A DNA stretch of 64,000 nt from Nitrosopumilus sp. (GCA_965249555.1 OZ252243.1:800001-864000), one strand, 5' to 3'; shown: positions 4,510 through 58,380, counted from the stretch's first letter. Made by a program: numbers and translations. The notes: generated by a model not told the origin, from the letters alone.

Positions 4510-4524
4510 AATATTGTAACAAAT

Positions 4525-11167: not shown

Positions 11168-11233
11168 TTCGTTAAACAATTATTCAGTTTTTTTATAGTT
11201 AAGCTTATCTAAAATGCATTTCTTGTAATGTAA

Positions 11234-11656: not shown

Positions 11657-11706
11657 TCTATTTTTAATGAATCTAGATCAAAAAATAGGAAAAACTATTT
11701 TAGAAC

Positions 11707-30490: not shown

Positions 30491-30532
30491 TTTTATTTAT
30501 TTTCAAGTCGGTACAGATAACATTGATATAGA

Positions 30533-31168
30533 TTAGTACAAAAGATTGCAAAAAACCAGTATTTGCTAATGTCAGGCCAGCGAAGACTGGCTGCAATGAA
30601 GAGATTACACGCAAAGACCATATTCCTGTTCATTGTATAACAAAGAAATCTCAAATGTCACTAGAAGCCAAGGCCTCATCAGTTGTGGAGAATATTCATA
30701 GAAATGATATGAGTCACAAAGATAGTGATTGCTGCAACCATTCTAACTGAAAAGATGGGAAAGATGCAAGCTGCACAACATCTGGGCGTTACAATTGCAA
30801 CTTTATACAGATATCCTGGGTTTGGGGCAGTACCTGACTCCCTAAAGGAGTTGGTTCCAAAAATGATATCTAGAGATGATATCACAAAACTATACTTGGC
30901 AGTGCCAAACATCAGACGTGCAAAAAACATTGCAACAAAGATATAAAATTTGGATTCGCAACTAAAAAAGCACTATATCTCTTTGTTATCAAGGCATCCC
31001 AAAATGTCGCACCCTAAACTGCTCAAACTCTCAAAGAGACTAATTCGGCAAAACGTGTCAGTGAAACTATCAAAAGGTGTTAGCCAAAAAGCTAAAAGCA
31101 AAGGCAGAACGAAATGGTCTGCCTGTTAATGACATGGCAAAACAGATTCTGGCAAAGCATTTTAAATG
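30533..31168 (+). pseudogene. ParB/Srx-like protein remnant
   Basis: Fragments YLLMSGQRRLAAMK, SVVENIHRNDM and an HTH (AAQHLGVTIATLYRY) in shifting frames; bounds approximate. Confidence 0.65.
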
Positions 31169-31273
31169 ACAAATAATGTCGTTTTAAGATAAACTGAAAA
31201 ACAAAACTGCATCATTAAACAAATAAAGATATTCTTTCAATCCTTAAATCTCATCATCCAAGGAAAATATCAC

Positions 31274-31729
31274 ATGACATCAAACAATGAGATAGTAATG
31301 AGTCTGGATAATCAATATCTAATTGATACAAATGAGAAAATTCTCAAAAGACATTCGCAAATAAAGAAAGCAAGGGTATGGATTGAGACTACTAAGAATA
31401 TTGATGTTGTAATTCCTAAAGTAAACAGTGTTGGTAATTCTGGAAATAGAACCGAAGATTTGATTGAAAAAGCAACATGTATAATGACTGTGATTCCTTG
31501 GGCTCAAGCATTTTTTGATGGTGATAGAAGAACTGGAATTATTGCTGCAGGTAAATTTCTACATGATAATGGGTATGAATTAGATATTGATCCAGAAGAT
31601 GAGAATTTGAAATTAAGAGACATGCTAAGTGAGATCAAGAAACATAGTCGTGACCTTGATCCAAATCTTATGGAGCAGATGTCTTTTTATATTTCAAAAA
31701 GAATCAAACCATATGAGCCCAGCAGATGA
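31274..31729 (+). CDS. Fic/Doc-family protein with degenerate motif
   Basis: AQAFFDGDRRTG versus canonical HPFxDGNxRT. Confidence 0.75.
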   Translation: MTSNNEIVMSLDNQYLIDTNEKILKRHSQIKKARVWIETTKNIDVVIPKVNSVGNSGNRTEDLIEKATCIMTVIPWAQAFFDGDRRTGIIAAGKFLHDNGYELDIDPEDENLKLRDMLSEIKKHSRDLDPNLMEQMSFYISKRIKPYEPSR

Positions 31730-31796
31730 AAAAATAACTAATAAACTCATTGAGAAATACTCTAAACTTTTAGATGATCTCGCTACTGACGATTAA
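31713..31796 (+). CDS. putative 27-aa antitoxin peptide
   Basis: MSPADEKITNKLIEKYSKLLDDLATDD overlaps the Fic 3' end. Confidence 0.45.
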   Translation: MSPADEKITNKLIEKYSKLLDDLATDD

Positions 31797-32478
31797 TTAA
31801 AGCCGTTTTCATATCTTCACACCTAAATGATTTTAATGATGCATTTTTGCTATTCATTAAGAATTACCGATACATCATAAATTCAGAGCATGACAGAAAA
31901 AGATGATAATGGTCAACCTTAAAAGAATGAATAAAGATATCAAAATCAGTAAACGAGTTTAATAGGATTCACAATAGTATTAATTTCCAAATTATCATTT
32001 TATCAAGAATCATCCACCCTGCAACATTAGCAAATGCACTAAATGCTGCTGAAATTACAATTCCTACAAAAAAGAACGGAATTGCAAAAAGGAACATGTA
32101 AAGTGGAAGGTAAAGAACTTGAGAAGAAAGAGAATGCATCACATAAAGTATCAGTGGTAAAACAACAACAATACCAATTTATGATACAATGGTAAGATCA
32201 CCAAGAGATGTCGCATACCAAAGCCAATAATTGAGATGTTAGGTGATCCAGATAGTTTGAAATTGATTGTTCGTGGAAAAGAGATTATCATGACTGGTAA
32301 TTGATCACAAACATTAAAAATAGAATAGGGGTTGATTTTGTATGGCACAGAAAAAATGCCCAAAATGTGGAGAATACTATGATGAACACACAAACCATCA
32401 ATGTGGTACATTAGGTGGAAGTGGAGACATAACAAAACAAGGTTCAGAAGAATCTGGACCTGGAATAGGTGGACAGGA

Positions 32479-32949
32479 TTAATCTATATTGTGATTTATT
32501 TTTGTAAATAAATTATTCAAATTTGTGTAATTGTATCCTGGATTTTCTTTTCTTGATTTATCAAATACTTGTTTTATTTTAGAATCATCATATAACATCT
32601 TGATATTTCTTCCATGTTGATGCAATACATGATCAAAATTCAACAGTTTATCTTTTTCAAACTCTGCCAAATATTCATAATGGTTGAGAACCTTGTATAT
32701 CTTATTATCATCTAATTCATTGGATTTTCCATCACTGATTTTGCACAATATTTCTCTAAAATCCTCACGTCTTACAGTATCAATCATTCTCAGACTAAGA
32801 TCAGCAGATGCTATCTTTGCACGTTGTATGTTTTGCCAAGCCAAAAAAAAGATAGTTCCAGCAGCCATGACCATACCAATGATTCCCCAGAAATCAGGAT
32901 ATTCCATTATCGTCATGCCAAATATGGGATTAATTTGGGTTTCTAACAC
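32479..32949 (-). CDS. membrane-anchored hypothetical protein (DUF4760-like)
   Basis: N-terminal TM segment and VLNHYEYLA motif. Confidence 0.6.
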   Translation of the reverse strand: MLETQINPIFGMTIMEYPDFWGIIGMVMAAGTIFFLAWQNIQRAKIASADLSLRMIDTVRREDFREILCKISDGKSNELDDNKIYKVLNHYEYLAEFEKDKLLNFDHVLHQHGRNIKMLYDDSKIKQVFDKSRKENPGYNYTNLNNLFTKINHNID

Positions 32950-32965
32950 ACCAAAGAACAGTTAG

Positions 32966-32989
32966 TTGAGACATGGGCATAATCCATTC
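32966..32989. mobile_element. orphan terminal inverted repeat of the DDE IS family at 51446-53844
   Basis: TTGAGACATGGGCATAATCCATTC is the exact reverse complement of 53821-53844; it is preceded by TTAG. Confidence 0.75.
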
Positions 32990-33261
32990 GTATGTATCAA
33001 CCTTTACGCACAAATCAATAAGCCTCGTATGGATACATGTCCGTCATCTTTTGTTTGAAAGCATTCCCTAGCGAAGGCTATGCCTTGGGATGCAAAAAAG
33101 TGGGAAATGTTTAAAAACAATTCACATGGATACATACGAGAATATATGTTCATGCTTATTCATAATTATAAACATTCAGAAAATAACGATCATTATTTTT
33201 TGAATTGTGATCATAATTTTGTTGATAGACTTTTTATAGGTCATTTTTGTAAAGTGTCTAG

Positions 33262-33738
33262 TTGACCGCTTCATCTCTTGCAGGTTTTTTCAATGGAATC
33301 AACAGAACCCTTTCCATGGATCAATTTGATGATAAACTAGAAGTTCAAAAAATAACTTACCTTGCTCAAGAATCTGGGATTGACCTAGGGTATGAATTTG
33401 AATGGTACATACGAGGTCCATATTGTAAACAAGTTTCTGAAGATGCACATACAGCTATAGATAATAAACTAACTGAACACCCAAATGATGTTGATTTAAA
33501 TCAAGAACAAGTTGAAGAGTTTGGAGAAATGTTAAGACCACATCTTGACAACACAGATTGGTTAGAAATTGCAGCTTCAATATTATATCTAAAAAATGAA
33601 AATTATGGAGATAAAGAATTATACGATATTATTGGCTACCTATTAGAAGACCTTACTTATGGTTACAAAAATTTTGAAGAAACTTTAGTTCGTAGGGTTT
33701 TAGCTGATATGCTAAAATTAAACATAATAACAGCATAA
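33262..33738 (+). CDS. YwgA/DarG-C/Panacea-like winged-helix protein (antitoxin-like)
   Basis: LEVQKITYLAQ..G...F.WY..GPY and WLEIAAS motifs. Confidence 0.7.
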   Translation: MTASSLAGFFNGINRTLSMDQFDDKLEVQKITYLAQESGIDLGYEFEWYIRGPYCKQVSEDAHTAIDNKLTEHPNDVDLNQEQVEEFGEMLRPHLDNTDWLEIAASILYLKNENYGDKELYDIIGYLLEDLTYGYKNFEETLVRRVLADMLKLNIITA

Positions 33739-33782
33739 CAGAATATTTAAAACTATATTCTCTATCGTTAAATAGTATTAAT

Positions 33783-34787
33783 TTGTTTGATCAAAAATGG
33801 AAAGAAATTCTTCAAGATGTAAAAGATAATGGTATTACAGTTAAACGAGGTGAAAAAAGAGCATTCAGAGAGAAAATTTCATATCAATTTCAAATAGATG
33901 ACCCAAGAGATAGGATACTTTTTAACAAAAATTTTGGTTTGAATATATTTCAATGTATAGGACAGTTTTTGTGGATTACACAAGGTAGTTTCAATGCTGA
34001 AACAATCAAATATTATGCTCCATTTTCGTCAAAGTATTCTTCTGATGGATTCAAGATGATTGGTGCTTATGGACCAAGATTATTTGGAATACATCATTTA
34101 GAACAAATCAAACACGTTATCAATGTACTAGATGAAGACACATCCAGAAGAAGGGCAGTCGCATCAATTTATCTTCCACAATTTGATCAACACAAAACAG
34201 CCGATGAAGTACCTTGTACACTAAATTTACAGTATTTAGTACGAGAGCAAAAAGTTCAATCAGTCACATACATGCGAAGTCAAAATGCCTTTAGGCTTTT
34301 GCCTTATGATGTATTTTTATTTACAATGTTACAAGAGTACGTCAATGCAGTTTTGACTACTGCACACAATACAAAACTAGGAAAATACAATCATTATAGT
34401 GGTAGTTTTCATATTTACATGGATGAATTAAATGTAATTGAAAATGTTTTAGAAGATAATACAAATGAAACTTTCCAAATGGAACCCATGCCATCAAAAA
34501 ATATCATTTTAAAATTACAAAAATTAAATAGATTTGAATCAATAGTTAGAACTATCATCTCTTCACATGAAAAAAGAAATAATTCCATTGATTTTGATTT
34601 TCTGTTTGAAATTTGTGAAGAATGGTTTGATGATTCTTATTGGAAACAATTTGCTTTATTATTGATTTGTTATGGTGCAATAATAATGAAAAATGATGAA
34701 AACAGAGATCGTGTCATATCATCATTAGAGCCAATTTACAAGTACATGGTACAAATGTATATTAATAAAAAAGCAAATTCAAGTTAA
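33783..34787 (+). CDS. atypical thymidylate-synthase-superfamily protein (dCMP-modifying type)
   Basis: AYGPRL, SRRA, VPCT, MRSQNA, LPYD and SFHIY motifs, plus an extra C-terminal helical region. Confidence 0.85.
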   Translation: MFDQKWKEILQDVKDNGITVKRGEKRAFREKISYQFQIDDPRDRILFNKNFGLNIFQCIGQFLWITQGSFNAETIKYYAPFSSKYSSDGFKMIGAYGPRLFGIHHLEQIKHVINVLDEDTSRRRAVASIYLPQFDQHKTADEVPCTLNLQYLVREQKVQSVTYMRSQNAFRLLPYDVFLFTMLQEYVNAVLTTAHNTKLGKYNHYSGSFHIYMDELNVIENVLEDNTNETFQMEPMPSKNIILKLQKLNRFESIVRTIISSHEKRNNSIDFDFLFEICEEWFDDSYWKQFALLLICYGAIIMKNDENRDRVISSLEPIYKYMVQMYINKKANSS

Positions 34788-35315
34788 AATTGAATTAGAA
34801 TATTTACGAAGTGAACGATACCAATCTAATTTCTCATTATACTTTGTATCAGCATAACTCTGTCCACTTGTTGAAGGTACAAGATAAATTCGTATGTCCT
34901 CATACTTGTATTGAAACCCATATTCTAAGTTGGAATATTGATTCTGTGAATATATCCTAAAACCCATTTTACCAACAAATGCAACTATTTTAGGCTTGAA
35001 TAAATTCAGAGTTCGATTGAGTCTTCTGGTACTTTTAATCGTGTATCTCTGTTTAATATCAGAAACTGTTCTAGTAGGTATTTTAACAATATCTGTTAGA
35101 CCATAACCAAACTTTAACATTTCTCTGTCATCTTCAGTTTTTAGTAATATGTTAGTTAGGCTTGATTCATACATTAATTTCCAAAATACATTAGAGTGTC
35201 CTGCAAAATAATGGCCAATTTGTGATGAACGTACACCGGGACTAGTACCTACAAAAAAAATTTTTAATTTTTTTTTCAAAATATCAGGTAAGGGCTTTAG
35301 TTTTGCATTCAACAA
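34779..35315 (-). CDS. MUG/TDG-family (family 2) uracil-DNA glycosylase
   Basis: VGTSPG..S...GHYFA...N.FW, GLTDIVK and VPSTSG motifs. Confidence 0.88.
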   Translation of the reverse strand: MLNAKLKPLPDILKKKLKIFFVGTSPGVRSSQIGHYFAGHSNVFWKLMYESSLTNILLKTEDDREMLKFGYGLTDIVKIPTRTVSDIKQRYTIKSTRRLNRTLNLFKPKIVAFVGKMGFRIYSQNQYSNLEYGFQYKYEDIRIYLVPSTSGQSYADTKYNEKLDWYRSLRKYSNSILT

Positions 35316-35568
35316 CTATTTGTAAAAAGACTCATAAAAAAAGATATGATAGTACGTAAAATGAATCCTTTTACCAAGTATAGATTACCCAATTTGGAAC
35401 AATTAAGATTTGATCATTAAATCTCTCATAGAGATTCACCATTATAGTTCAAACCATTAATATGACTAAACAAATCTTTGAACGAGATTTACAATATTAG
35501 TTTGACACTTTAAAATCAATTTCCATAATACTTGAGACTACAGGGTTTGGTTACTATAGTTTAAATCT

Positions 35569-35814
35569 CTAAACTTTTCTTCCGCTTTTCTTAACTTTAG
35601 CAACAGTTCGGCCATAGGATTTTCCAACCGGATTAACATCCACAGTTTTTCCGCCAATTTTTTTATTTAAATTATTTTTTGCTGTCACAAATCCTCGTTG
35701 TCCTTTTTCTGGAGCGTCTTTATCAGCTATTCTGATGTAATTACTGCCTCTAACTGGTCTATCTATTTTGAATGTGTCCCCATCAATTACTTTAGTAACT
35801 TTTCTTTTAACCAT
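35569..35814 (-). CDS. small thermonuclease (SNase-like)
   Basis: VIDGDTF, IRIADKDAPE and YGRTVA motifs. Confidence 0.85.
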   Translation of the reverse strand: MVKRKVTKVIDGDTFKIDRPVRGSNYIRIADKDAPEKGQRGFVTAKNNLNKKIGGKTVDVNPVGKSYGRTVAKVKKSGRKV

Positions 35815-36080
35815 ACTTGTGCTAAATTCACTATAATCATACTTAACTTACATGAATATCACAATAACCCGATCAGGCAAATTCTTTATAAAATAAATTC
35901 TAAAATTATTTCCAAAAGTAAAAAATAAAGTCATAACTTGCTACAACAATAACTGTAAAAACTATCAGTCCTTTTACCTCAAATTTTCGAAATACAATTA
36001 CATAAGATAGCCAAGGTTGAATATTTGTTCTTTTTTTGTAGATTATATTTTTTTATACATCTAATTACACTCAAACCATA

Positions 36081-37556
36081 TTGGACTTAAAACAATGGTA
36101 TCTAAAATATATCAATTACTTTAGAGAAGAGTATGAAAAATTATCTGTTGATGAAAAGAAAGGTATCAACAACACAAACAATTTTTTAAACCCATGCCAG
36201 ATTGAAATTTTTTGGGTTACTGATCCAGATTACCAATTAATAATACAATCTAATTTTAATGACAGACCAGATAAAGAAATCATTGTAAATGGACCATACA
36301 AACCACATGAATTTCATTCCAAGGTAATTGCAATATTAAACGACAAAAGATGGATACGTAACTTTAAGCAAAATTTGCCATACAGATATGAACAATTTGA
36401 CACTATAGGGGAGAAAATGGCCACAGAGGTTTGGAAGTTTATCGAGATGAGCAAGAATTATCCCTATACATCACAAAGAAGAGATCCTCATCCATTAACT
36501 GGGATGGCACTTGATGATACTTGGACTAGTACTCGTGTTGGTAATATTGGAGATCTTGATCATATACAAGAAATTAACAATATAATTCAAAAAATCAAAC
36601 AGCAAGCCAAATTCAAACAAGAAATAATACATACATCACAACAACCAACATCACTTGCAAATGACACATTTGATGGGTTTGGAGTTCATTTGTTTCCTCC
36701 AATTGTGATAGGTTCATTACACAAACGCAGTATAGAGGAATTAGTCTATAATACATCAAATTATCAGATACGTAATAATAAAGCATTTGATATGAAGATT
36801 TGTAATAAACAAATCATCGTCAACAAAGATGGGTTTATCTTTGTTGAAAGTAATAGTAAAGAAAATGCATTAAAAATTCTAAATCTAATCATGGCATTAG
36901 GTGTATTTTATAAATTTCCTCTGCATGCTGTTCGTGAGTATGAGTTGGTTATGGCTAACTATGACAAACAAAATTTAACTGTGACTAACATGCAATGGAA
37001 TACTGAAACGAGACGAGCACATCTAATGGATGATTTCTTTAATCCTATGTATAGTGGTAGCAATGTAAAAACCAATGTAAAATCAGATACCATAAAGGAA
37101 ATTCTCTCAAACACTGAAAAATTACTTGTACACGAAAAATTATCAGAAGACATGAGATTGCTCAATGAGGGCTTGACTCATTTTATTAACTCAGAATTTG
37201 CTCCATCTTTTATCATGGGTTGGAGTGTAATAGAGAGACATTACTCTGATCTCTGGAACACGTTCCTCTATCAGAAAAATATTGATCATGAACGTTTATC
37301 CAAACTAAACAATTTAGGTCAATGGACAATTGACTATATTTTGGAAGTTCTTAGCCTTCAAGACAAAATTGATGAGAATTCTTTTGATCTTTTAATGGAA
37401 CTAAAAAGAAAGCGTAACAAGTTCTATCATAATGGAAAGCAAGTAACAAAAGAGGATGCTGATCGCTGTCTTAAATGTGCTATGAAACTAGTTGTTGAGA
37501 AAATTAATCTGTACATTAAATTATCAGATAATCTAATGCTTACAAATATATCCTGA
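36081..37556 (+). CDS. HEPN-domain (ApeA-like) protein
   Basis: C-terminal W..IE helix and RNKFYH (Rx4H) motif. Confidence 0.7.
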   Translation: MDLKQWYLKYINYFREEYEKLSVDEKKGINNTNNFLNPCQIEIFWVTDPDYQLIIQSNFNDRPDKEIIVNGPYKPHEFHSKVIAILNDKRWIRNFKQNLPYRYEQFDTIGEKMATEVWKFIEMSKNYPYTSQRRDPHPLTGMALDDTWTSTRVGNIGDLDHIQEINNIIQKIKQQAKFKQEIIHTSQQPTSLANDTFDGFGVHLFPPIVIGSLHKRSIEELVYNTSNYQIRNNKAFDMKICNKQIIVNKDGFIFVESNSKENALKILNLIMALGVFYKFPLHAVREYELVMANYDKQNLTVTNMQWNTETRRAHLMDDFFNPMYSGSNVKTNVKSDTIKEILSNTEKLLVHEKLSEDMRLLNEGLTHFINSEFAPSFIMGWSVIERHYSDLWNTFLYQKNIDHERLSKLNNLGQWTIDYILEVLSLQDKIDENSFDLLMELKRKRNKFYHNGKQVTKEDADRCLKCAMKLVVEKINLYIKLSDNLMLTNIS

Positions 37557-37944
37557 TGTGATAAAACAATATCCCTTAAGATCAGATTGGCAGAGTAATG
37601 TGAAGAGAAATTAATGACATTCTAAGATTGTATGAGTTTAGCTGGTTATCTAATGAGAAAAATAGTTGCTGGCTAAAAACGTTTTTTGCCAAAATCAGAA
37701 GCATTTTTCATAAGGTAATTTTATGATTGGATTTCTCCATGTAATCGTAAATTATCACAAGGGATTTGAAAAGGATATCTCTGATGTGGAATACATTTTT
37801 CTATATCCATTATTTCTAATTTAGGAATCAAGTCATATCCATAAGAAGTATAATAAAAAAAATATTCTTTTTTAATAGAGTTAAAAATACCATGACCGAA
37901 AAGTTGTGGAGGATCTGTTTCATTGGCACCGCCAATTGTAACTA

Positions 37945-39035
37945 TAGCGACGATCAAAAGTTCGTGAACATCTTTGCAGGATTTCTAAAAATATAATTAA
38001 CAACATCAAGTTTGAATTTTTTTTGTTCCAAAGTATTGTGACACTGCATTATTCATTATTGTAAACATTGCATAATATTCTGATACCAACAACACATGCC
38101 TGCTTATCTTCCAACACTGCTCTATCATGTTTAGATATGGTGATCCTTTTGGTAGCCAAATCAGTTTAACATCTGGATTATCTGTCAAAAAGTCCTTGAC
38201 CTTCTTTGATTTGTGCACTGATGCCCTGTCAAGTATCAACGCAATTTTACCATATTTGTAGTGTAACTCTTTTAGATATTCTACAAATGTTATGCCGTTG
38301 AATTTTTTATAAATTCTAAACAGTTGGTCTCCATTGATTGTAATTGTTCCATACACTGCCAAACTTTCATGGTTTCCCACATATGGGAGAAATATTCTTT
38401 TGGCAACTGGTGACCAATATTTTCGTCCTGCTTTTACATCCCTAACAAAGAATGCCTCATCAAGCATTGCAATGGTGAATCCACTCTTTTTTAGGTGTGG
38501 AATTCTCTTTTTCATGCGTTGCTGCCAGCTGCGCACAGCTGTTACACTTGCATGATTGACGTGATATTTTTGTGCAGTTTTAGCAGACATTCCATACTGG
38601 CGCATTATTTTTCTGACATGTGTTATGTGAAATTTTATTCCAGTAGAATCAAATATTGTCTGCTGCAGCATTACAGGTGTAAATAGTGTCAACATAATTT
38701 TGAACATAATAGAATCCATTTGCTTCTTTGGGATTACACATGGTCTTCCACTCCTTGGGTGATCGTAGAGGCCGTCAAGGCCATCTACTTTAAAACGATC
38801 AACCCATTTGCGTACCCAGTTTGTACAGCGGTATAGTGTTTGTGCGGTGTACTCTAATTCCTTACCCTCTTTGAGAACCATTAGTACTGCAAGCATCCTG
38901 ACTGCCGCTTTGGAGTTTTCCTTTTTGTATGCTACTTCAAGCTGTTCTAACTTGTTCATGTGTTTCATTGTGTGTGGTGATCAAAAAGTCTTTCGTTTTG
39001 ATGATTTTTAGTTCACGAACTTTGGCTCTTCGCTA
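37945..39035 (-). mobile_element. IS630-family insertion sequence
   Basis: Terminal inverted repeats (TA)TAGCGAcGAtCaAAAGTTCGTGAAC and its reverse complement with 3 mismatches; TA duplication at 37943-44 and 39036-37. Confidence 0.93.
38006..38968 (-). CDS. IS630 transposase
   Basis: HTH (PRSGRP) and DDE motifs LDEAFF, LDRASVH, SPYLNMIE; the frame is uninterrupted. Confidence 0.93.
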   Translation of the reverse strand: MKHMNKLEQLEVAYKKENSKAAVRMLAVLMVLKEGKELEYTAQTLYRCTNWVRKWVDRFKVDGLDGLYDHPRSGRPCVIPKKQMDSIMFKIMLTLFTPVMLQQTIFDSTGIKFHITHVRKIMRQYGMSAKTAQKYHVNHASVTAVRSWQQRMKKRIPHLKKSGFTIAMLDEAFFVRDVKAGRKYWSPVAKRIFLPYVGNHESLAVYGTITINGDQLFRIYKKFNGITFVEYLKELHYKYGKIALILDRASVHKSKKVKDFLTDNPDVKLIWLPKGSPYLNMIEQCWKISRHVLLVSEYYAMFTIMNNAVSQYFGTKKIQT

Positions 39036-39164
39036 TACAAACTATTGTTTTACCACTAATATTATTTCAATCCATAATTTAAAAAATAAAAAATAAGATA
39101 AAATAATTGCGATCAAAGAAAAACAACTCAAAACTTATAATGGCATATTAGATCGATCCGTTAC

Positions 39165-39935
39165 TTGTGGAATAATAAACCAATCAACATCAAAACAGCA
39201 ATAAAACCTCTTGGAGGATGTCAGGATCAACCTTGGTTGATGGAAGATGATGATAAAAAACAATATGTAGTAAAATTCAGAAGAAATGACAATATTCCAA
39301 CTATCATGAATGAGATTTTTGCAAACAAATTAGCAGTACAATTGAATCTGCCAGTTCCAAAAATGTTTCTTGTAAATGTAGATGAACAATTAATTAACAA
39401 AGTTCCAGAATTAACACAACGTAAAATCAAAGGAGGGAGACATATAGCTACAGAATTTATAAAAAACTCTATCACAATGAATGATTTACTTGGTTTCCCT
39501 ACACAAAACCGTAATATTTTAAATATGGATCAAGTTCCAAAGTTTGTTATTTTTGATATGATGTTATACAACAATGACAGACATAATAAAAATATATTAC
39601 TTGCAAAAAATTACGATGGTAATTACAAATATTACTTGATAGATCATGGAACTATCTTTTGTGGGAAATTTTGGGGAAAATCTATTTATAATTTACGATA
39701 TAAAAAAATACGTAATAATTGGCAAACAAATGGATCTAACTATATCGATGCTTATCAGGATTTTGCAGAAACAGTAAATGATTTAAAAAAATCAGATTAT
39801 TGGAATTCTGCGAATTATATTATAGATGAGTTTTTATTACATTCTCAAACCCCAAAATTCATAGTGAATAAACTCGTTCAGGATAATCAAAAGACAATAC
39901 TTAATTTTATCAATGATTCAATAAAGAGTAGATAA
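39165..39935 (+). CDS. HipA-like Ser/Thr kinase
   Basis: YVVKF, NEIFA..LA..LNLPVP, FD....NNDRH..N and LIDHG motifs. Confidence 0.85.
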   Translation: MWNNKPINIKTAIKPLGGCQDQPWLMEDDDKKQYVVKFRRNDNIPTIMNEIFANKLAVQLNLPVPKMFLVNVDEQLINKVPELTQRKIKGGRHIATEFIKNSITMNDLLGFPTQNRNILNMDQVPKFVIFDMMLYNNDRHNKNILLAKNYDGNYKYYLIDHGTIFCGKFWGKSIYNLRYKKIRNNWQTNGSNYIDAYQDFAETVNDLKKSDYWNSANYIIDEFLLHSQTPKFIVNKLVQDNQKTILNFINDSIKSR

Positions 39936-39938
39936 AAA

Positions 39939-40727
39939 ATGACGTGGTTTTCGTATACAGTAGTAAAATTTATTCCAGATCCAGTAAAAGATGAACGAGT
40001 TAATATTGGGGTTATTGTACTTGGTGATGATGGTTCTTGCAAATCTAAATTCGTTAAAAATTTTAATTTCATAAAAAAAATATATTCTATAAGTGATGTT
40101 GATTTATTAGAATTTGTTTTATCAAATTATGATTATAATAAATCCAAACAAGATGTAAATCTTCTTCAGAAGTTATATGAGAATTCTATTCGTGATCATA
40201 GAATAAAGGTAGAATCTCCTCGTGCTATTAATTCAAACTCTATCCTTGTAGCTGTTGATGAATTATTTTTACAAATGATTAGTATTCCTGAAAAACAACA
40301 TATCTCTAATGCTTTGACTGATTTGGATAATAAAATTACAAAAATTTTATACAAAAAAATAAAAATGCAAAGACGATTTGTAAAGCGACATCATTGTGTA
40401 TCGGGTAAAAAAACAAATAGTAAATATGATTATGTGTTTATGAATGGACATGTAACTAACATCCTACAGAGAATATCTTTTGATATTTTAAACAAAGATC
40501 ATGCATTACAAAAAGTAAAATCATTTGTGTATGATTCTATAGATATTCATGAAAAATTAGATAATATAACTTGTGTTGCATATGTACCAACGCCCAAAAA
40601 GATTTGCGAACAACATGTTGAAGCTGTAGAGGTTTTAAAATCATCTAAATATTGTACATTGGTAGATGATAATTCCTTAGAGACATGTTTAGTACGAATT
40701 CATGAAAAGCATACACAAACAAGTTAG
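39939..40727 (+). CDS. DUF3037-family partner protein
   Basis: YTVVKFIPDPVKDERVNIGVIV N-terminal signature; starts 3 nt after the kinase. Confidence 0.82.
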   Translation: MTWFSYTVVKFIPDPVKDERVNIGVIVLGDDGSCKSKFVKNFNFIKKIYSISDVDLLEFVLSNYDYNKSKQDVNLLQKLYENSIRDHRIKVESPRAINSNSILVAVDELFLQMISIPEKQHISNALTDLDNKITKILYKKIKMQRRFVKRHHCVSGKKTNSKYDYVFMNGHVTNILQRISFDILNKDHALQKVKSFVYDSIDIHEKLDNITCVAYVPTPKKICEQHVEAVEVLKSSKYCTLVDDNSLETCLVRIHEKHTQTS

Positions 40728-40885
40728 TATTAAAAAAATATTTATTTACAACAATTAAACAACCAAATCCACACAAAGAAACTTTGTCTTATCTCACTAA
40801 TTAATTTCAGAGTCTAAAACAAAAACAGGTATAATTCTGATCGCCATTCTTTTATTCTGACATATATTTTATATCTACAATTACA

Positions 40886-41500
40886 TTGAAAACAACAATA
40901 CTATTGTTGGCAGCAATATTGTTTATTCCAGTAGGAATTAACGGTATATCTGCACAGACAATACTAGGTGGAGATAATACAGATGTAGGGTCTACTGGTC
41001 ATATATTGCTGGATATTACAACATTAGAATCATACAAGTTACATCCTGAAATAACAAGAGAAATGTTAGAGGTTCTGCCAGGTGAACAACCATTAACAGT
41101 AGAATTTGGACAAGCTTATGATGAGATTAATCTTATCGGATTTGGTATAGAGGATCATATCAGATCAGAGTATGTGGAGTTTTTGGAGGATTTACCGATA
41201 ACAACTTTTGGAAAAATGGGTAATGCTTTGAGTGTTGGAATTGATCCATCTTATAAAGATCAATTAGATAATATCAAAGAACAGTTAGAAATTATGTATC
41301 CTAATGTAGATACTGATGTTGTAATTGCATCAACGCTTACATATCACGATACATTTTCTAAAACCTCTACAGTAAATACTGCAATTCCAAATGGTGATAG
41401 AACATCATTAGTTAATACCATACAAGTAACAAATCATGCAACTCTAAACTCTATGACAATAAGCATTACAGTTGATCAGCATCAAACCTGTGACAATTAG
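40886..41500 (+). pseudogene. truncated secreted protein (ends in a P-domain-like start)
   Basis: Signal peptide; the C-terminal TAIPNG...TIQV...TISITVDQH breaks off. Confidence 0.5.
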
Positions 41501-41825
41501 CTGGACTGGTGGATCTTGGGAGATGTTGACTTGGTCTATTGCTGACTTTGATAATCGCCACCATGGTTCTTTTAGAACTCCTGGTGGATTGGCTTACTTT
41601 ATTGTTGGATGGGAATACATTGATGTTGAACAAAACACATTCCACTTGATAGGATTTGTTGATAATGAACGTAATCTATGTAATTCTGAAAACCATGAAC
41701 AAATGTTTACTTTTGATATGTATTGTGATTGTAACGGTACTAATTTTGATATGATTTCAAGACATCCAAATGGATATAATTTCACTGCTAATGATATGCA
41801 GGTTAGTGCTGCTTGTATGTATTGA
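41472..41825 (+). CDS. hypothetical protein / fragment
   Basis: 117 aa ORF. Confidence 0.4.
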   Translation: MISIKPVTISWTGGSWEMLTWSIADFDNRHHGSFRTPGGLAYFIVGWEYIDVEQNTFHLIGFVDNERNLCNSENHEQMFTFDMYCDCNGTNFDMISRHPNGYNFTANDMQVSAACMY

Positions 41826-41872
41826 ATTCTCCAATAAATTAAGTATCTAAAATAGTAGGTAGAAAAAAGTAC

Positions 41873-41946
41873 CGGGTCTAGAGGGATTCGGACCCTCGAC
41901 AACCGGATTAAGAGTCCGGTGCGCTACCTGGCTGCGCCATAGACCC
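41873..41946 (-). tRNA. tRNA-Lys(CTT)
   Basis: Reverse complement GGGTCTA...CCGGA-CTCTTAA-TCCGG...TAGACCCG. Confidence 0.96.
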
Positions 41947-42005
41947 ACCAAAATGAATTAGCCCAGAGTTGTTATTAATCTTAAGATTGTAAAATAAAGG
42001 AAAAT

Positions 42006-51358: not shown

Positions 51359-51548
51359 TTTATTTCTACCATATCATTTTAGTAGGAAATATTGAAAGGT
51401 TATCAATTAGGAAAACTCAACTTTGTGGGTAATTTTGTCAATTAACTGAGACTTGAGCATAATGATTTACAAAAATAAAACCAAAACTTTTCTCTAACAA
51501 CAAAGCATTCTTTTCACAATCCTTGGATTCTCACTTCCAATTACACAG

Positions 51549-52828
51549 ACGTTATACAAAATCTTTTTCATATCTTGTGATGTATACCTACTGTTGGGCC
51601 TGAGAGTTGAATTATTACTGCCATGTACAAGGGCGTTACACAGACTAACTCAAAGTGAGCGGAAAACAAAATACCACATAGATGGCAAATGGGAGCATTC
51701 CGCTAGATCAGGCAATTTGATCAAAAAGGAGGTGATGGTATGATCAGCATAGGAATTAATATTCACAAGAAGAAATGTGTTGCAACAAAATAGGAATCCA
51801 GAAAGAAGCTAGAGCAGACAAGCTTTGATAATACCACAAATGGAATAATGGGTTTTATCAAACACGTCAAAAAGACATATGGCAATGACATACAGGCAGT
51901 GTGTGAGTCAACTGCAAACTATTGGATCAGACTACATGACACACTAGAGGACCATGGAATTGATACAATTCTTGCACATCCTGCAAAGACCAAGATAATT
52001 GCACAGGCAAAGCTAAAAAACGACAAACTTGATTCAGACGTATTGGCAGGACTTGCTAAGAGCAGACATGGTGTACAGCTCATTCGTACCAGAAAAATAC
52101 TATAGAGACTATACAGTCTGGTAAGAACCAGACTGAATCGCGTGCGAAATGTATCAAAACACAAAAACATGATTTATGCAATACTTGCAAAATATGATTA
52201 CACCCACAAAGACATTCTCGCAGAAAGGAGTACGATGGTTGCATGAAATTAATCTGATAGAATGGCAATGGATGCATATCTTGATACCATAGATATGACA
52301 CAAAAACAGATCAACACAATTGAGATAAAGATTGCAGTAATGAGGATGAGAAAACAAGACTACTAATGACCATTCCTGGAATAAACTATGTCACGGCATT
52401 GACAATAATTTCAGAGATAGTTGACATCAGCAGATTTGCATCAGCAGAAAAACTAGTCTCATATGCAGGACTTGCACCATCGCACAGGAATGCAGATGTG
52501 CACCGAGGAGGCGGAATAACAAAGAGGGGTTCTGCATGGTTACGTAACGCAATGGTAGAGGCTGCAAATACTACAGTACGATTTGATGAAAGAATGGGAT
52601 CATTCTATTTCAGAATTGCAAAGAGAAGAAAACAAAGGTGACAGCTGCAAGACCGGATGCTTGCAATAATCCGGGTATATGCTAACAAATTCTGAAAGTG
52701 TATCGTACACAAAATCATGAACTGACACAACGAAAGTATAAGATGCAAGGCATATCTGAGATGTCCTGATTCAGCAAAGCATGCTAGGAAGTGTCCTCAG
52801 TAGGGTTGGAGACGATTTCGTATGGGAG
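51549..52828 (+). mobile_element. IS110-family element (recombinase pseudogene ~51740-52769)
   Basis: GINIH, CEST, KNDKLD, IPGI and YAGLAP motifs across broken frames; AGGAGGTGA RBS; 2-bp AG core at both junctions. Confidence 0.9.
51598..51713 (+). ncRNA. putative IS110 bridge/seek RNA
   Basis: Closing stem GCCTGA/TCAGGC. Two stem-internal-loop arms hold segments matching the target (ATTATTACT, TTACACAG) and the donor (ATGGGAG). Confidence 0.75.
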
Positions 52829-54118
52829 TTATAATACACTGCCAACTGATACACCAACACGCAAATCAGCACGAATGATTGTACGTTCTCAAATCCTTTC
52901 ACTGGAACTGTTCTAATGCTAAACGTATCCTTGATTATTTCAAATAGTGCTTCAATTGATATTTTTCTCTGAGAATGTAATTTCCGACCAACTGCTGAAT
53001 TGTAAAACTCTATCAACTTTATTCTGTCTGGTGGCGTAGAATAGTATTTTTTGACTGGACAGATCAATCTCATGGCATTATTCTTAGTTGACTCGTATAG
53101 TTTAGAATCATCATATGCCGGATCACACCATATACTATTCATCAATCCAGAAAGTGACCCAATCAATTTCTCATATGGCTTACTGTCATGAACATTTGCA
53201 GCAGTTACACATGCAGATAATGGAACTAGCCTTTCCTGTACTACAACTCATGTGTAGTTTGTATCCATACATCCAACCCTTTGATTTGGAGAATCCCCAC
53301 AATTGGTAAATGATTCTTTTTGATGTCTGATTTGTGCCATACTGGACCTGAAGCTTTTAGCATTGAACTATCAACTGATGCTGATTCACTATTCACCAAT
53401 CCTTCTGAGACAAACAAATCTCCTACAGTGTTAACAATTTCATTGATTGGCAAGCATTGAAATCTTCTGTCAATTGTCCTTCTGTCAGGGATTTAGTCTG
53501 CAAACCTTGAGTAATTTGTCATTGGTACATTTGATTGAGAGAAAATAATGCAGTGTGTTGTCACTTGGAATTCGCATCCATGACTTTATGATGAATAACT
53601 GAACCATTAGAACAGTCGAATGGACATATGGTAATCCTCGTCTCACTGCATTCTCATACAGAGACAGTGTTCCAACCAGATACAAAACACCAATAAGAAA
53701 TGACTCACATAGAATCTTGCTAGGGATTTTTATTTGTTTTGTAATCATTTCAATGAACAAAACATAATGAGATCTTTGGCTTTTTCTATTTGAATAATTT
53801 GAGAAATCGGTTAAAAATGAGAATGGATTATGCCCATGTCTCAAGTAATATGTCAGAACTGGATAAATAGTGCAATTACTGTTTGACTAAATTAACGAAT
53901 TGCGGATCAAAAGCTAAAAAAATATATTTTATTTAATAATTTTTAGGCGATCAATTTTTTTATGTTGTAATTTTTAGTCAATATAAAAAAGGTTCTGGTG
54001 CAAAATGTGATCAGATCATCAAAATCCACTACATCTGTTTCATTCAATAAGAAAAATCTGATCGCTTTCACTATTTTATTATGATTACATTTAAAAAATC
54101 AACTTTTTAAAATACTAC

Positions 54119-55651
54119 ATGGAAAATACCGGCGATGATCTTCACCAATTACTTGAAGAAAATGAAGAAGTTGGAGAGTTAATTTCAGATAGTGAAACTC
54201 CATCATTCCAAAAATTTCGATTTAAAGCATTTTCAAATAAATTTTTTTCACCAGCCAGTATCGTAGCTGTAAAAGTTAATGATCATGATTTTCTTGTAGG
54301 CCAAATTACCACGTCTCATGAAATCAATCCTAATTTCACACCAGAAAAAGTCACACTAAGACATTCTATGAATATTCCATCGGATCATCCTGAAGAAGGT
54401 CAATCATTAACTATATTTCGTATTTATGAAGTTGAAATTGTGAATCAAGTATCTATTAATGGGAAAAACCTATCAATTTTTCCTCACGAGATATTACCAC
54501 GTGCAGGATCAAGAGTTATCATTCCTGAACAAAACATGATCAGTCAAGTTCTAGGTATAAAAAATAACAAAGAGGATGGTTTGTATGTTGGAAATTTATC
54601 CACAACAATTTCAGTAGAAAATAAAATTCCTGTAATACTAAAGCGAGAGATAATACAAAGACATATTTTTATTGGCGGTACTACAGGTGGTGGAAAATCA
54701 TATACTGCAAAAGTAATAGCTGAAGAAATTCATAAACACAATTTACCTGTGATTTTTTTTGATACTCAAGAAGAGTTTACTGCATTAACTCAAAAACTTG
54801 ATGGGGTGGTACTGCGTCCTGGAGATGATTATACCATTAAATTATCTTCTCTAACTGAAGATGAAGTATTAAATCTTGTACCATCTGTAAGTCATAGACT
54901 CCATTTAGAGATTTTATCTAGTGCATTTCTTAGACTTAGAGAAACTAAAAACAATTTTGGAACAAATGATCTGATAACAAAAATTATAGATGTTTGTAAT
55001 GATCAAAACACTCAACAAAAAACTATTGATATTATTACTCAAAGAGTCAAAATATATCTTAATTCATATAATTTCATAGGTAATGATTTTGATTGGAGTG
55101 ATATATTCAAGAAAACTAATATGATCAATATTGATTGTCATGGATTTACACGCAATCAATTACAGCTTATCCTTGCATCTACTATGAGAGAACTACAAAA
55201 ACTTCGACAAGATAAAACTGTGCCTCCATACATGATGTTCATTGATGAAGCCCATCTATTCGTTCCTGATGGTGAAACCAGTGCATGTAAACAAATTATC
55301 AGAGAAAATGTTCGGATGGGGCGTCACATTGGAATTTGCCTTGCTTTAATTACTCAAAGTCCAATTGACATAGACAAAAAAGTTATTCGACAATGTAATA
55401 CTCGATTTCTTTTTGCGTTAGAACCAGATCAATTATCTGCTCTTCAAGGTGTACGTTCTGATGCTACTAAAGAAATGATTGAAAAATTACCCAAGTCCCC
55501 AGTTGGTTCTTGTTTATTATCAGGTACTTATGAAACTATAAAACATGCAATACCTCTAGCAATACGAGAATTAGAAACTAAAGATGTAGATTCAGGAAAG
55601 GCGCCTGCTATTTTTGATGAAGTAAAAACATTGTATAAAATTGGTGAATAA
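54119..55651 (+). CDS. HerA-family ATPase/translocase
   Basis: HAS-barrel-like N-terminus, RHIFIGGTTGGGKS, FIDEAH, RMGRH and ITQSP motifs. Confidence 0.9.
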   Translation: MENTGDDLHQLLEENEEVGELISDSETPSFQKFRFKAFSNKFFSPASIVAVKVNDHDFLVGQITTSHEINPNFTPEKVTLRHSMNIPSDHPEEGQSLTIFRIYEVEIVNQVSINGKNLSIFPHEILPRAGSRVIIPEQNMISQVLGIKNNKEDGLYVGNLSTTISVENKIPVILKREIIQRHIFIGGTTGGGKSYTAKVIAEEIHKHNLPVIFFDTQEEFTALTQKLDGVVLRPGDDYTIKLSSLTEDEVLNLVPSVSHRLHLEILSSAFLRLRETKNNFGTNDLITKIIDVCNDQNTQQKTIDIITQRVKIYLNSYNFIGNDFDWSDIFKKTNMINIDCHGFTRNQLQLILASTMRELQKLRQDKTVPPYMMFIDEAHLFVPDGETSACKQIIRENVRMGRHIGICLALITQSPIDIDKKVIRQCNTRFLFALEPDQLSALQGVRSDATKEMIEKLPKSPVGSCLLSGTYETIKHAIPLAIRELETKDVDSGKAPAIFDEVKTLYKIGE

Positions 55652-55653
55652 TA

Positions 55654-57249
55654 ATAACTGATACTGATGAAAATTATGCTATTTCTATTCAAGAGATTTT
55701 AAATAAAGCTCAAGTTGAACGTGCTTTTGATCCTTCTGTAACTCAAACAGCCAAATTTTTAATTAGTGCAAGTTATTTTGAAGAACATGAAGATACGATC
55801 AAAAAAGTAAAAGAAAGATTATTGCACGAAGATCCAAGAAAATTATTTTTTGATTGTTTACAATTTTTGGTAAAACAAATTCAAACTTCAAATGAATCGA
55901 AAAAATTTCTTTGGGTTGATCAACTAGTAAATCTTGGTGTTCGCGGTCTCGGAATAAAGATTGATGATCTTGAATTTATTGGAAGTGATTCAAAAAATAT
56001 TTTTCGAGCAACGCCCAAATGGGATAAAATTAGAGAACATATCAACAAATATGTTTTAGGAGATACATTTTTGATATGTGTTTCTTTGGAAGATGATGAT
56101 AAAATTTGGGGTGGAGATATCCCATTAAGAATAAGTTCTAGTGATGCAACTCAACATAAATTCAAATTAACATTACCCTTTTACAACAAAACTTTTTCAA
56201 CACCAATTGTAGTTAATAATGCTGCAGGAATCATCAAAGAAAAAAATAGTTCTAAATCTAATTGGATTAAAGTTGCAGTTCCAAAAAGTACACAAGATTT
56301 TGAAGATTGGGTAATTATTGGTCCTAATGAATATCGAGATTTAGATGAAAATGATTATGATTGGGCAACAAAGTCTGCCATGGATATTGGACAATTTTTT
56401 GTGGAAGAAAGTTATATTTTCTCTCATGGCGGTACTTCAAAACGTCCGGATGTTCATTTACGTGATGGAACAATTTTTCCTCAAGATCATGCAATGAATT
56501 CTAAATCCAATAATCGTCGTGGAGAATTAACACGTGAATCTATTCTTAGAATGACTACTACATTGAAACGTGCAAAAGATCTAGGTATTCTTTATTGTGG
56601 TGTTTCAAAAAATGTTGAATTGAAAATGTATAGTATTGTGATTGATTACTATATCCGAGAAATTTTGAAAGATGAGAAATGGAATATAACTCAAAGTCTT
56701 CTGTCTGATTCTGATATTATGAGATATTTGTTACCTTCTGAAAATTTTAATGCATCTACTTTTGGTGAGATTTACATTACTTGTCCTATTATACGATCAT
56801 TTTATGTAAAAACTAATTTGAATTCTAGAACCGATAGACAGGTTCAAAATGATCTGTCATCGTTAGGTGGTATTAAACACAATAGAACAAAAACTGCTAG
56901 AAATATAGTTGAAGATGCATTAGACACAAAAATAACTATGTTTTTTGTAGGGCACACAAATTCTGACAATTACTATGTTCCTAGATATGAATTTGTATAC
57001 TATGATAATTATGCTGAAAAAATTAATGAAAAATTATCTCAGGTTTTATCAGCTATAAGGTTTGCAGTAATTGAATTAGATAATGATCATATGAGAAAAT
57101 TAGATGAACCCATACTTGTTCCACTTCCCATCATGTTTGCACATGAACTTAGTAAAACAATGGGTAAGGAATTAGTTGAAAATTGGACTTCTAGAACATG
57201 GGCTGAATACATGCGATTAAAACATGAACATTTTGATAATACCAATTAA
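55654..57249 (+). CDS. NurA-like nuclease (start uncertain: ATA near 55654 or TTG 55822)
   Basis: SSDAT, HLRDGTIFP, GVSKN and LPIMFAHE motifs; frame open from 55648. Confidence 0.72.
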   Translation: MTDTDENYAISIQEILNKAQVERAFDPSVTQTAKFLISASYFEEHEDTIKKVKERLLHEDPRKLFFDCLQFLVKQIQTSNESKKFLWVDQLVNLGVRGLGIKIDDLEFIGSDSKNIFRATPKWDKIREHINKYVLGDTFLICVSLEDDDKIWGGDIPLRISSSDATQHKFKLTLPFYNKTFSTPIVVNNAAGIIKEKNSSKSNWIKVAVPKSTQDFEDWVIIGPNEYRDLDENDYDWATKSAMDIGQFFVEESYIFSHGGTSKRPDVHLRDGTIFPQDHAMNSKSNNRRGELTRESILRMTTTLKRAKDLGILYCGVSKNVELKMYSIVIDYYIREILKDEKWNITQSLLSDSDIMRYLLPSENFNASTFGEIYITCPIIRSFYVKTNLNSRTDRQVQNDLSSLGGIKHNRTKTARNIVEDALDTKITMFFVGHTNSDNYYVPRYEFVYYDNYAEKINEKLSQVLSAIRFAVIELDNDHMRKLDEPILVPLPIMFAHELSKTMGKELVENWTSRTWAEYMRLKHEHFDNTN

Positions 57250-58286: not shown

Positions 58287-58380
58287 GTTGAAAGATATCT
58301 GTTTCGGTTTTGGATTAGAAAATTTAAAAATTACATTATTTTTGAAAAAAAGATAAGTGTGTGATTAAATTAGCAGTTTT

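Follow-up and report, generated by a model that had tools for sequence, protein, structure and literature searches.

Gene content of the locus

We analyzed a 64,000-nucleotide (nt) stretch of DNA from Nitrosopumilus sp. (GCA_965249555.1 OZ252243.1:800001-864000), called the window below, which is the interval 800001-864000 of contig 1 in a Nitrosopumilaceae genome that is complete at 2.23 Mb. At 33262-35315 the window carries three adjoining genes, which encode a small protein resembling the C-terminal part of DarG (DarG-C-like), a homologue of thymidylate synthase (TS) and a DNA glycosylase of the MUG type (MUG1). This trio is a conserved, mobile and sporadically distributed module of the Nitrosopumilaceae, and its TS homologue is predicted to act on a cytosine nucleotide. 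The three genes are as follows (positions are counted from the first nucleotide of the window):

33262-33738, plus strand, DarG-C-like small gene of the winged helix-turn-helix (wHTH) kind, 158 amino acids (aa) from a TTG start
33783-34787, plus strand, TS homologue, 334 aa
34779-35315, minus strand, MUG1, a MUG-like glycosylase, 178 aa

The small gene and the TS gene are co-directional and separated by a 44-nt gap, and the convergent MUG1 overlaps the end of the TS gene by 9 nt (34779-34787).

Conservation and distribution of the module

The original prediction, made from the sequence of the window, had joined the wHTH gene, the TS homologue and the glycosylase in one defence or toxin-antitoxin (TA) module. 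A neighbourhood search shows that the three do recur as a unit, with the same order in 25 distinct archaeal-type loci obtained from scans of species genomes and metagenomes (27 rows once the bacterial-type locus L184 is set aside, two of which represent the same contigs as others). Across these loci the identity of the TS protein to the window copy is mostly 47-78%, with 43% in one partial locus. In all 20 loci with upstream DNA, the gene immediately before TS is the small gene; this count includes L009, which is degraded and full of transposases. Downstream, the MUG gene converges on the 3' end of the TS gene in 20 of the 21 loci that extend far enough; it is split in L008 and absent from L009. 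The spacing of the two 3' ends, taken from the coordinates, ranges from a 29-nt overlap to a 9-nt gap in 19 of 20 loci and is an 86-nt gap in the remaining one. The TS gene itself is split in L011.

The full form of the module has the order MUG2 (minus strand); NDT, DarG-C-like gene and TS (plus strand); MUG1 (minus strand), where NDT is a gene of family PF05014, present in 11/25 loci, and MUG2 is a second glycosylase paralogue, present in 14/25. The window copy is the short form, with three genes and without NDT and MUG2; the same genome carries a second, fuller copy at ~1.78 Mb. Among 169 bacterial, viral and other loci with more distant TS relatives we found 0 wHTH-like and 0 MUG-like open reading frames (ORFs), and the linkage is therefore specific to the archaeal clade. 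Within that clade the distribution is patchy: the TS gene occurs in 2 of 201 sampled genomes of the family, counting this one, and in none of the 16 further genomes of the genus. One close relative of the TS protein has Nitrosarchaeum as its source label. Elsewhere the module is flanked by type I restriction-modification (R-M) genes, Mrr_N, HEPN and NERD genes, integrases and transposases, or by plain housekeeping genes. No close relative of the TS protein was found in IMG/VR (best identity 35-38%) or among cultured phages (≤32%), and IMG/VR held no close relative of the small protein.

Some loci have further genes. In the locus of the second module (L005), a ParB-like protein (ParB_N and HTH_ParB; 11125-11970) adjoins MUG2, and a tyrosine integrase-like gene lies at 4048-4902. 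In two metagenomic loci (L173, 3319-4419, and L174, 2703-3719), NDT and the DarG-C-like gene are separated by an additional gene, whose product of 338-366 aa matches no Pfam family.

The TS homologue has the residues of a dCMP-modifying enzyme

The TS homologue belongs to the TS superfamily (PF00303, E = 4.4e-15, 56 bits against a cut-off of 24.3) and also matches phrog_5131 (E = 1.9e-40). Among proteins in the PDB its best match by far is the CMP 5-hydroxymethylase MilA (E = 3.6e-28), while ordinary TS enzymes score 5.5e-8 or weaker and T4 dCMP hydroxymethylase scores 5.7e-4; it is MilA-like also in its C-terminal helical extension. In alignments to MilA, TS and the phage protein RB69 gp48, the motifs EVPCT, SFHIY, LPYD, GQFLW and RSQN coincide with E. 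coli Cys146, His207/Tyr209, Asn177, Glu58 and Asp169, respectively, and all the TS motifs on which the original prediction relied are thus present at the E. coli positions it gave for them. All 48 aligned TS relatives have Cys145, Arg123, Arg165, Asp176, His210 and Tyr212, and 47 of them have Ser166. At the positions of E. coli L143, D169 and Glu58 the window protein has Glu142, Asn168 and Gln61.

Several of these positions are informative about the substrate. According to the MilA study, Asp at the specificity position marks a cytosine substrate and Asn a uracil substrate, and a Ser/Arg pair marks a deoxyribonucleotide where Ala176/Lys133' of MilA marks a ribonucleotide (PMC5175136). The window protein has Ser166 and Arg123 in place of the MilA-type pair, and dCMP is its predicted substrate because these two residues are combined with Asp176. 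The original assignment to dCMP/CMP-modifying enzymes thus stands as regards cytosine and is refined, by Ser166 and Arg123, to dCMP over CMP.

Other positions bear on the product. Lee et al. (NAR 2026; PMC13326640) report that an acidic residue at E. coli L143 (L143D/E) accompanies non-methyl products, and that D169N is diagnostic of the flavin- and O2-dependent 5-hydroxy-dCMP synthases, with 5-hydroxydeoxycytidine (5hodC) made by 9 of the 9 D169N homologues tested there. The window protein displays the entire signature of these synthases (D169N, N177D and L143D/E), since its MRSQN, LPYD and EVPCT align with RB69 gp48; in the direct alignment, at ~29% identity, E-x-P-C and MRSQN...D are common to the two proteins. 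The phage 5-hydroxy-dCMP synthases RB69 gp48 and DLP3 gp80 (PMC13326640) are like it in superfamily and in having Glu at L143, Asn at D169 and Asp at N177. They differ in setting, since the archaeal gene shares its cellular island with glycosylase genes and a gene resembling DarG, whereas the phage genes lie with a dNMP kinase and glycosyltransferases. They also differ in structure: the archaeal protein has Gln at the Glu58 position and a C-terminal extension of ~100 aa, whereas RB69 gp48 keeps Glu and has no extension.

Asn at the D169 position occurs in 20 of 120 listed TS homologues, and 18 of these 20 fall in the archaeal-type clade, defined here as the 74 proteins (P0001-P0074) with at least ~35% identity to the window TS. 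The second TS copy of the genome has Asp at this position (RSQD), as hydroxymethylases have, and His at the Glu58 position. Loss of the catalytic Glu58 is general in the clade, with Gln, His or Thr in 69 of the 69 readable sequences among P0001-P0074 (5 were unreadable); the residue is kept in RB69 gp48 and in the bacterial TS clade.

With Asp176, Glu142, Gln61 and Asn168 in place, the protein departs from the canonical dTMP synthase ThyA, and its scores against the NCBIfam thymidylate-synthase equivalogs are all far below the cut-offs. The residue set of dCMP and CMP hydroxymethylases (Glu58, which is E68 in MilA; Asp169; and N177D) is present only in part, with Asp176 in place but Gln61 and Asn168 at the other two positions. 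MilA and T4 gp42 resemble it in the specificity Asp and in the acidic residue that precedes the catalytic Cys, and both have Asp169 where it has Asn; MilA further differs in Ala176/Lys133' for Ser166/Arg123 and in the catalytic Glu that is replaced here. The same genome encodes ThyX for dTMP. Asp176 in 48/48 relatives, MilA as the best solved match and the presence of ThyX all support the view that the protein acts on a cytosine nucleotide and is no ordinary dTMP synthase.

In these alignments the TS homologue keeps an intact nucleophile and nucleotide-binding set together with the specificity residues of the non-methyl, dCMP-using members of the superfamily. We regard it as a predicted dCMP C5-modifying enzyme with the signature of 5-hydroxy-dCMP synthases, and as the candidate effector of the module.

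The ThyX gene (contig 1, 1816663-1818006) is itself unusual: two Thy1 domains lie in one 546-aa frame, as a tandem fusion.

The small protein resembles the DarT-binding domain of DarG

The small protein matches the DarG models of PADLOC (E = 2.6e-6) and NCBIfam (antitoxin_DarG, E = 2e-5), both over the C-terminal part of the model, with an NCBIfam score of 24 against a cut-off of 250. Its TTG start gives 158 aa, while the gene caller chose a later start (140 aa); the longer form is supported because its N-terminus is conserved in homologues. An AF2 model (pLDDT 94.8) consists of a winged-helix-like N-terminal half and a helical bundle. When this model was compared with the PDB by Foldseek, the sole credible match was 7yk3_B/D (prob 1.00, TMq 0.56-0.59, E 0.03-0.08; all others prob ≤0.13), which is DarG in its complex with DarT from M. 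tuberculosis (DarTG), and the family profile of the small protein also matches 7yk3_B by sequence (E = 0.031). The model and the profile indicate that the small protein carries a domain of the DarT-binding type found at the C-terminus of DarG, although the likeness is remote. As a single domain of 158 aa it has no N-terminal macrodomain, and no neighbour matches the DarT model of PADLOC. Of the original description of this gene as YwgA/DarG-C-like or Panacea-type, the DarG-C part is supported by PADLOC, NCBIfam and Foldseek; the Panacea part is not, with no PF13274 match. Panacea/SocA (PF13274, DUF4065) is matched by 0 of 38 family members at E ≤1 and by 0 of 45 wider relatives at E ≤0.01, and Pfam as a whole gives no credible match for any of the 38 and none above cut-off for the 45 sampled wider members.

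A profile search of 1.84 billion representatives exposes a large DarG-C-like family: 2038 representative clusters at E ≤0.001 (876 at E ≤1e-10), mostly proteins of ~160 aa; none of the 83 members scanned has a Pfam match. The family is present in 46 of 401 sampled genomes of the phylum, often in several copies, of which this genome has four. To characterize its partners we annotated 29 neighbour ORFs from 29 small-protein loci that have no TS gene. The immediate downstream gene on the same strand encodes a PIN protein in 4 loci (one of the four above the Pfam cut-off, three below), PemK/MazF in 1, an HD protein in 1 and a weak nucleotidyltransferase match in 1; in one locus ParE lies two genes downstream, and the neighbour of other relatives is a BsuBI/PstI restriction enzyme or a cytosine-5 DNA methylase. 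In archaea the small-protein family thus behaves like a promiscuous antitoxin, and in the module the toxin position is taken by the TS gene. The layout of the module is that of a type II TA system, with a small upstream putative neutralizer, a downstream effector candidate, and relatives of the former beside toxins. As a candidate neutralizer or regulator, the small protein may restrain the TS enzyme, a role suggested by its fold and by the neighbours of its relatives. Co-folding of the small protein with a TS monomer gave scores of 0.50, 0.54 and 0.55, against 0.51 for one unrelated control; the TS family is dimeric.

Two further DarG-C-like genes of this genome lie outside TS modules, at 171710-172165 (L203) and 418291-418713 of contig 1. 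Downstream of the L203 copy, and overlapping it, is an ORF of 80 aa that matches no Pfam family and is possibly an unrecognised toxin.

Glycosylases and NDT hydrolase

MUG1 is a clear member of the UDG superfamily, of the MUG/TDG type and family 2-like (PF03167, E = 1.6e-15, 57.8 bits against a cut-off of 24.3; TIGR00584 mug, E = 4e-26), with TIGR00584 and PRK10201 scores under the equivalog cut-offs. Among solved structures it matches human TDG (E = 1.3e-20) more closely than E. coli MUG (E = 3.8e-15), and no others. Alignment with human TDG confirms that GTSPG stands in place of GINPG, as had been read from the window. In an alignment of 33 glycosylases, the catalytic Asn of G-I-N-P-G is Ser in 17 of 19 MUG1 sequences and Asn in 14 of 14 MUG2 sequences, the two MUG1 exceptions being the other copy in this genome, with Arg, and a single sequence with Asn. 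The window MUG1 has Ser in place of the catalytic Asn that characterizes family 2.

A second change is found in both paralogues: the Asp of G-L-T-D (GLTDIV in the window) occurs in 33 of 33 glycosylases and aligns with the Asn of TDG FTNMV. We take the same Asp to align also with K68 of E. coli MUG. The unusual residues are found throughout the clade in aligned relatives of both the TS enzyme and the glycosylases, and are thus neither private to this genome nor a mark of decay. Relative to TDG and MUG, the module glycosylases therefore combine Ser for the catalytic Asn, in the TS-linked paralogue, with Asp for the Asn of TDG or the Lys of MUG.

K68 of MUG is the equivalent of UNG N123, which reads N3/O4 of uracil; human UNG N204D gains cytosine excision, and E. 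coli MUG K68D gains none (PMC4333384). We infer that the TS enzyme and both glycosylases carry an Asn-to-Asp-type change of the kind by which other enzymes switch from uracil to cytosine. Action of the glycosylases on a modified base is suggested by one pocket residue. The three MUG-type genes of the genome all lie in its two modules, and a fourth gene of the UDG superfamily lies elsewhere.

The NDT protein of the full module has Rcl/DNPH1, deposited as '5-hydroxymethyl-dUMP N-hydrolase', as its best solved match (E = 2.7e-6), with MilB weaker (E = 0.016). The Glu of G-V-G-x-E, presumably the catalytic residue, is conserved in this alignment.

Bacterial relatives and defence precedents

The Asp-type TS family also has a bacterial clade, at 30-38% identity, which keeps Glu58 and Asp169. 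Its genes form a cassette (74 loci, L012-L085) with an aGPT-Pplase3/amino-acid:DNA transferase (ADDT) in 66/74 loci, a divergent M78 peptidase in 65/74, a ~265-aa protein in 31/74 and DUF4031 in 16/74. In both domains of life the Asp-type TS family thus accompanies a protein of base-flipping fold and a regulator. The archaeal and bacterial sets are alike in pairing an Asp-type TS with a DNA-glycosylase-fold protein and a regulator, but the bacterial partner has a helix-hairpin-helix fold where the archaeal one has the UDG fold, an M78 peptidase takes the place of the DarG-C-like regulator, and the bacterial TS keeps Glu58/Asp169. Enzymes of the aGPT-Pplase3/ADDT type are known from phage DNA hypermodification (PMC8989533). 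We observed separately that the bacterial cassette pairs a cytosine-specific TS with an enzyme family known from thymidine hypermodification.

A TS homologue also occurs in a validated anti-phage system. In the DefensePredictor work (PMC13092281), the E. coli system NTTI combines its TS with a kinase, a TIR protein, one hypothetical protein and what is called a 'DNA base hypermodification protein'; a bacterial Asp-type TS member is scored there as a predicted defence gene, and aGPT-Pplase systems are given as predicted only. The TS of NTTI has Asn at the specificity position, as read from the printed sequence, and NTTI differs from the archaeal module also in having kinases and a TIR protein.

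One Firmicutes locus (L036, Paenibacillus) is of another kind: its TS relative lies beside serine hydroxymethyltransferase, two AMP-binding enzymes resembling non-ribosomal peptide synthetases, an APH-type kinase and a hydrolase. This gene content suggests a nucleoside natural-product cluster and not a DNA system, and L038 and L047 (Firmicutes) have ORFs of matching sizes.

The surrounding island

The module lies in a variable island next to a tRNA gene. The features concerned are:

30504-41864, no strand, variable island with the module, delimited by blastn against same-genus genome G013
35569-35814, minus strand, SNase-like mini-nuclease ORF, 81 aa, an island neighbour outside the conserved module
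41872-41947, minus strand, tRNA-Lys(CTT), found by ARAGORN, its 3' end adjoining the island

G013 is collinear with the window up to position 30503 and resumes this order at 41865; in place of the intervening sequence it has 2.45 kb of different DNA. Because of this collinearity on both sides, we place the module in an 11.4-kb insertion at tRNA-Lys(CTT). Coordinates, ARAGORN and the G013 comparison together bear out the gene layout, the 9-nt overlap and the tRNA-linked island that had been described from the window. A search of the island borders for direct repeats of the att type yielded short AT-rich chance repeats only.

The 81-aa ORF, which the original prediction had counted as a fourth component, is weakly nuclease-like (phrog_452 endonuclease, E = 8e-8; thermonuclease models, E ~0.008, far below cut-off). 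It is confined to the window: none of the 24 other distinct archaeal-type loci contains it or gives a phmmer match to it, and we rejected it as part of the module.

The other island cargo comprises a Doc-like gene, a protein with a HEPN C-terminus, an IS630-like transposase and a HipA_2 + DUF3037 pair. The Doc-like protein (31274-31729) matches TIGR01550 (E = 6e-6) and phrog_577 (E = 9e-9). The 491-aa protein at 36081-37556 has a Swt1-like HEPN C-terminus (E = 1.2e-4, below cut-off); PADLOC gives no match for this protein or for the SNase-like ORF. The IS630-like DDE_3 transposase lies at 38006-38968, and a frameshifted copy of it, at 5655-6576 of L005, adjoins the genome's second module. At 39165-40727, the gene for a HipA_2 kinase (PF20613, E = 3.6e-17) is followed by that for a DUF3037 protein, and these two genes match the PADLOC candidate pair PDC-M66A/B (E = 7e-9 and 4e-10); DUF3037 and a HipA-family kinase are among the domains newly validated in defence according to the DefensePredictor study (PMC13092281). 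A second stretch of ~9.6 kb, at 51447-61011 of the window, is absent from the otherwise collinear G013 and is probably another variable island.

Discussion

A proposed conflict module with a predicted pool-level effector

We tentatively read the window genes as the short form of a conflict module (defence or TA-like) whose effector is predicted to make modified dCMP. Our confidence in this reading stays somewhat below the halfway mark, because the steps past the residue-based prediction of the substrate are inferred. In the proposed mechanism, the TS enzyme would turn dCMP into 5-hydroxy- or 5-hydroxymethyl-dCMP, so that the dCTP supply would be drained or poisoned and the modified base would enter newly made DNA. 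The DarG-C-like protein would restrain the enzyme by direct binding, possibly by repression, as its domain does for DarT. The TDG-like glycosylases, with their Asp pocket, would act on the modified cytosine in DNA, and could either clean the host chromosome or cut marked viral DNA; in the full form, the DNPH1-like hydrolase would destroy the modified mononucleotide.

One writer, one protein inhibitor and erasers on separate genes would mirror DarT/DarG, which the module resembles in the fold of the small protein (that of the DarG chain) and in this proposed logic. It differs from DarTG in that it has no macrodomain and no DarT, its writer would act on a mononucleotide, and its erasers would be separate genes (MUG, NDT). 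This is the best-supported reading, and it accounts for the five genes, the island, the sporadic distribution and the DarTG-like logic.

A number of observations weigh against it. PADLOC-DB v2 gives 0 families for the TS or MUG proteins, and none of its models matches either gene. Translational coupling is not evident, since the wHTH and TS genes are 44 nt apart with no overlap. Because the clade has lost Glu58 while RB69 gp48 keeps Glu, the use of the cofactor and even catalytic competence are in doubt, and the D169N rule was set on phage enzymes only ~29% identical to the window TS. The same partners accompany Asn-type and Asp-type enzymes, and thus do not discriminate between the predicted products. 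For the glycosylases, the pocket Asp alone is no proof of a cytosine-type substrate, because E. coli MUG K68D does not excise cytosine, and with Ser at the catalytic Asn position MUG1 may bind without cutting. Entry of the modified nucleotide into DNA would depend on host kinases, because no dNMP kinase is linked. Finally, the bacterial TS relatives lie beside DNA-hypermodification enzymes (66/74), which could equally point to modification of self DNA.

A more specific version of the conflict-module reading, which we consider speculative and rather unlikely as it stands, is 'mark-and-excise' immunity. Infection would free the TS enzyme from its DarG-C-like brake and flood the pool with 5-hydroxy- or 5-hydroxymethyl-dCMP; new DNA, mainly viral, would be marked; the cytosine-adapted, TDG-like glycosylases of the module would strip the modified bases, leaving abasic and broken DNA; and the hydrolase would mop up leakage in healthy cells. 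If true, the module would defend the cell by generating a non-self label of its own at the level of the nucleotide pool, and would be the first cellular (and archaeal) use of an enzyme of the 5hodCMP-synthase type.

Alternative explanations

Modification of self DNA is the alternative to which the bacterial cassettes could point. The enzyme would supply 5-hydroxymethyl- or 5-hydroxy-dCMP, by way of host kinases and polymerase, to protect the cell's own or the element's DNA against nucleases; the glycosylases and NDT would proofread or recycle deaminated or excess modified bases, and the small protein would be a winged-helix transcription regulator. R-M systems are indeed among the neighbours of the module, the ADDT family beside the bacterial TS relatives is known from phage hypermodification (PMC8989533), and phage TS homologues produce modified dNMPs for DNA (PMC13326640). 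No dNMP kinase, dCTPase or transferase is linked in the module loci, however, and repair of 5-hydroxymethyl- or 5-hydroxyuracil would need the uracil-reading Asn where 33 of 33 glycosylases have Asp. A pool-level change to the whole chromosome would also be drastic for a small island gene found in 2/201 genomes of the family, and relatives of the small protein precede toxins and not metabolic genes. On balance we consider modification of self DNA improbable.

The pockets of the glycosylases allow a different view of defence, in which MUG1 and MUG2 excise 5-hydroxymethylcytosine (5hmC)- or 5-hydroxycytosine (5hoC)-type bases of viral DNA, NDT hydrolyses the viral modified dNMP, and the TS homologue is a sensor, decoy or accessory. 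Brig1 and Brig3, which are reported to excise glucosyl-5hmC and 5hmC (PMC11078745, PMC13160076), show that modified cytosine can be targeted in defence by proteins of the UDG superfamily. The Asp pocket in 33/33 glycosylases, the DNPH1-like NDT, the island and the defence-type neighbours all fit such a role. The module glycosylases differ from Brig1 and Brig3 in their obligatory linkage to a TS homologue, and this view gives no role to that gene, which is the most conserved of the cluster, its anchor, and equipped with all nucleophile and nucleotide-binding residues. Moreover, the short form retains just the paralogue without the catalytic Asn, and similarity to solved structures is to TDG and MUG only. 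We judge a Brig-like function of this kind distinctly unlikely.

We think it very unlikely that the genes serve a small-molecule pathway like those of MilA/MilB and BcmA/BcmB, in which TS and NDT would make free 5-hydroxymethylcytosine for an antimetabolite or for salvage. MilA is the best solved match of the TS protein, NDT belongs to the MilB family (PF05014), and TS and N-glycosidase pairs operate in mildiomycin and bacimethrin synthesis (PMC4081090, PMC5175136). The TS enzyme, in contrast, has the deoxyribo pair Ser166/Arg123 and not the Ala/Lys of MilA; NDT is nearer to DNPH1 than to MilB, is absent from the window copy, and is restricted to fewer than half of the loci (11/25). Such a pathway would have no place for two DNA glycosylases and a DarG-like domain, and the nearby genes include no methyltransferase, ThiD-like kinase or peptide-forming genes. 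That the window holds a decaying remnant of an imported cluster, without current function, is scarcely credible: although some loci are broken (the split TS gene of L011, the split MUG1 of L008 and the transposases of L009), Glu58 is lost and the window copy is without NDT and MUG2, its three ORFs are all intact, order and spacing are kept while TS identity to the window copy is 47-78%, and the unusual residues are clade-wide.

Novelty and significance

Taken singly, the parts of the module are familiar: a member of the TS superfamily, glycosylases of the TDG/MUG family, a domain like the C-terminal one of DarG and a DNPH1-like hydrolase. In PADLOC and in the literature, with bioRxiv supplements and subscription papers outside the scope of the search, we found no description of the combination of TS, UDG/MUG and DarG-C-like genes, with or without NDT. 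What is new is the fixed combination of genes, the occurrence of a 5hodCMP-synthase-type signature in a cellular, archaeal context, and the paired Asn-to-Asp and Asn-to-Ser changes of the glycosylases.

TS homologues that make 5-hydroxymethyl- or 5-hydroxy-dCMP are counter-defence tools of phages. Here a homologue predicted to be of this kind sits in a cellular, archaeal mobile module, beside a DarG-like inhibitor domain and glycosylases whose pockets are apparently re-tuned from uracil to cytosine. As natural variants of the TDG family (Asn to Ser, and Asn or Lys to Asp), these glycosylases may excise 5hoC or 5hmC, which would make them useful for base-resolution mapping. If the module serves in defence or as a TA system, it would add a new effector chemistry, cytosine modification at the level of the nucleotide pool, to prokaryotic immunity, and would provide a testable system for the ammonia-oxidising archaea, whose immune repertoire is poorly known.

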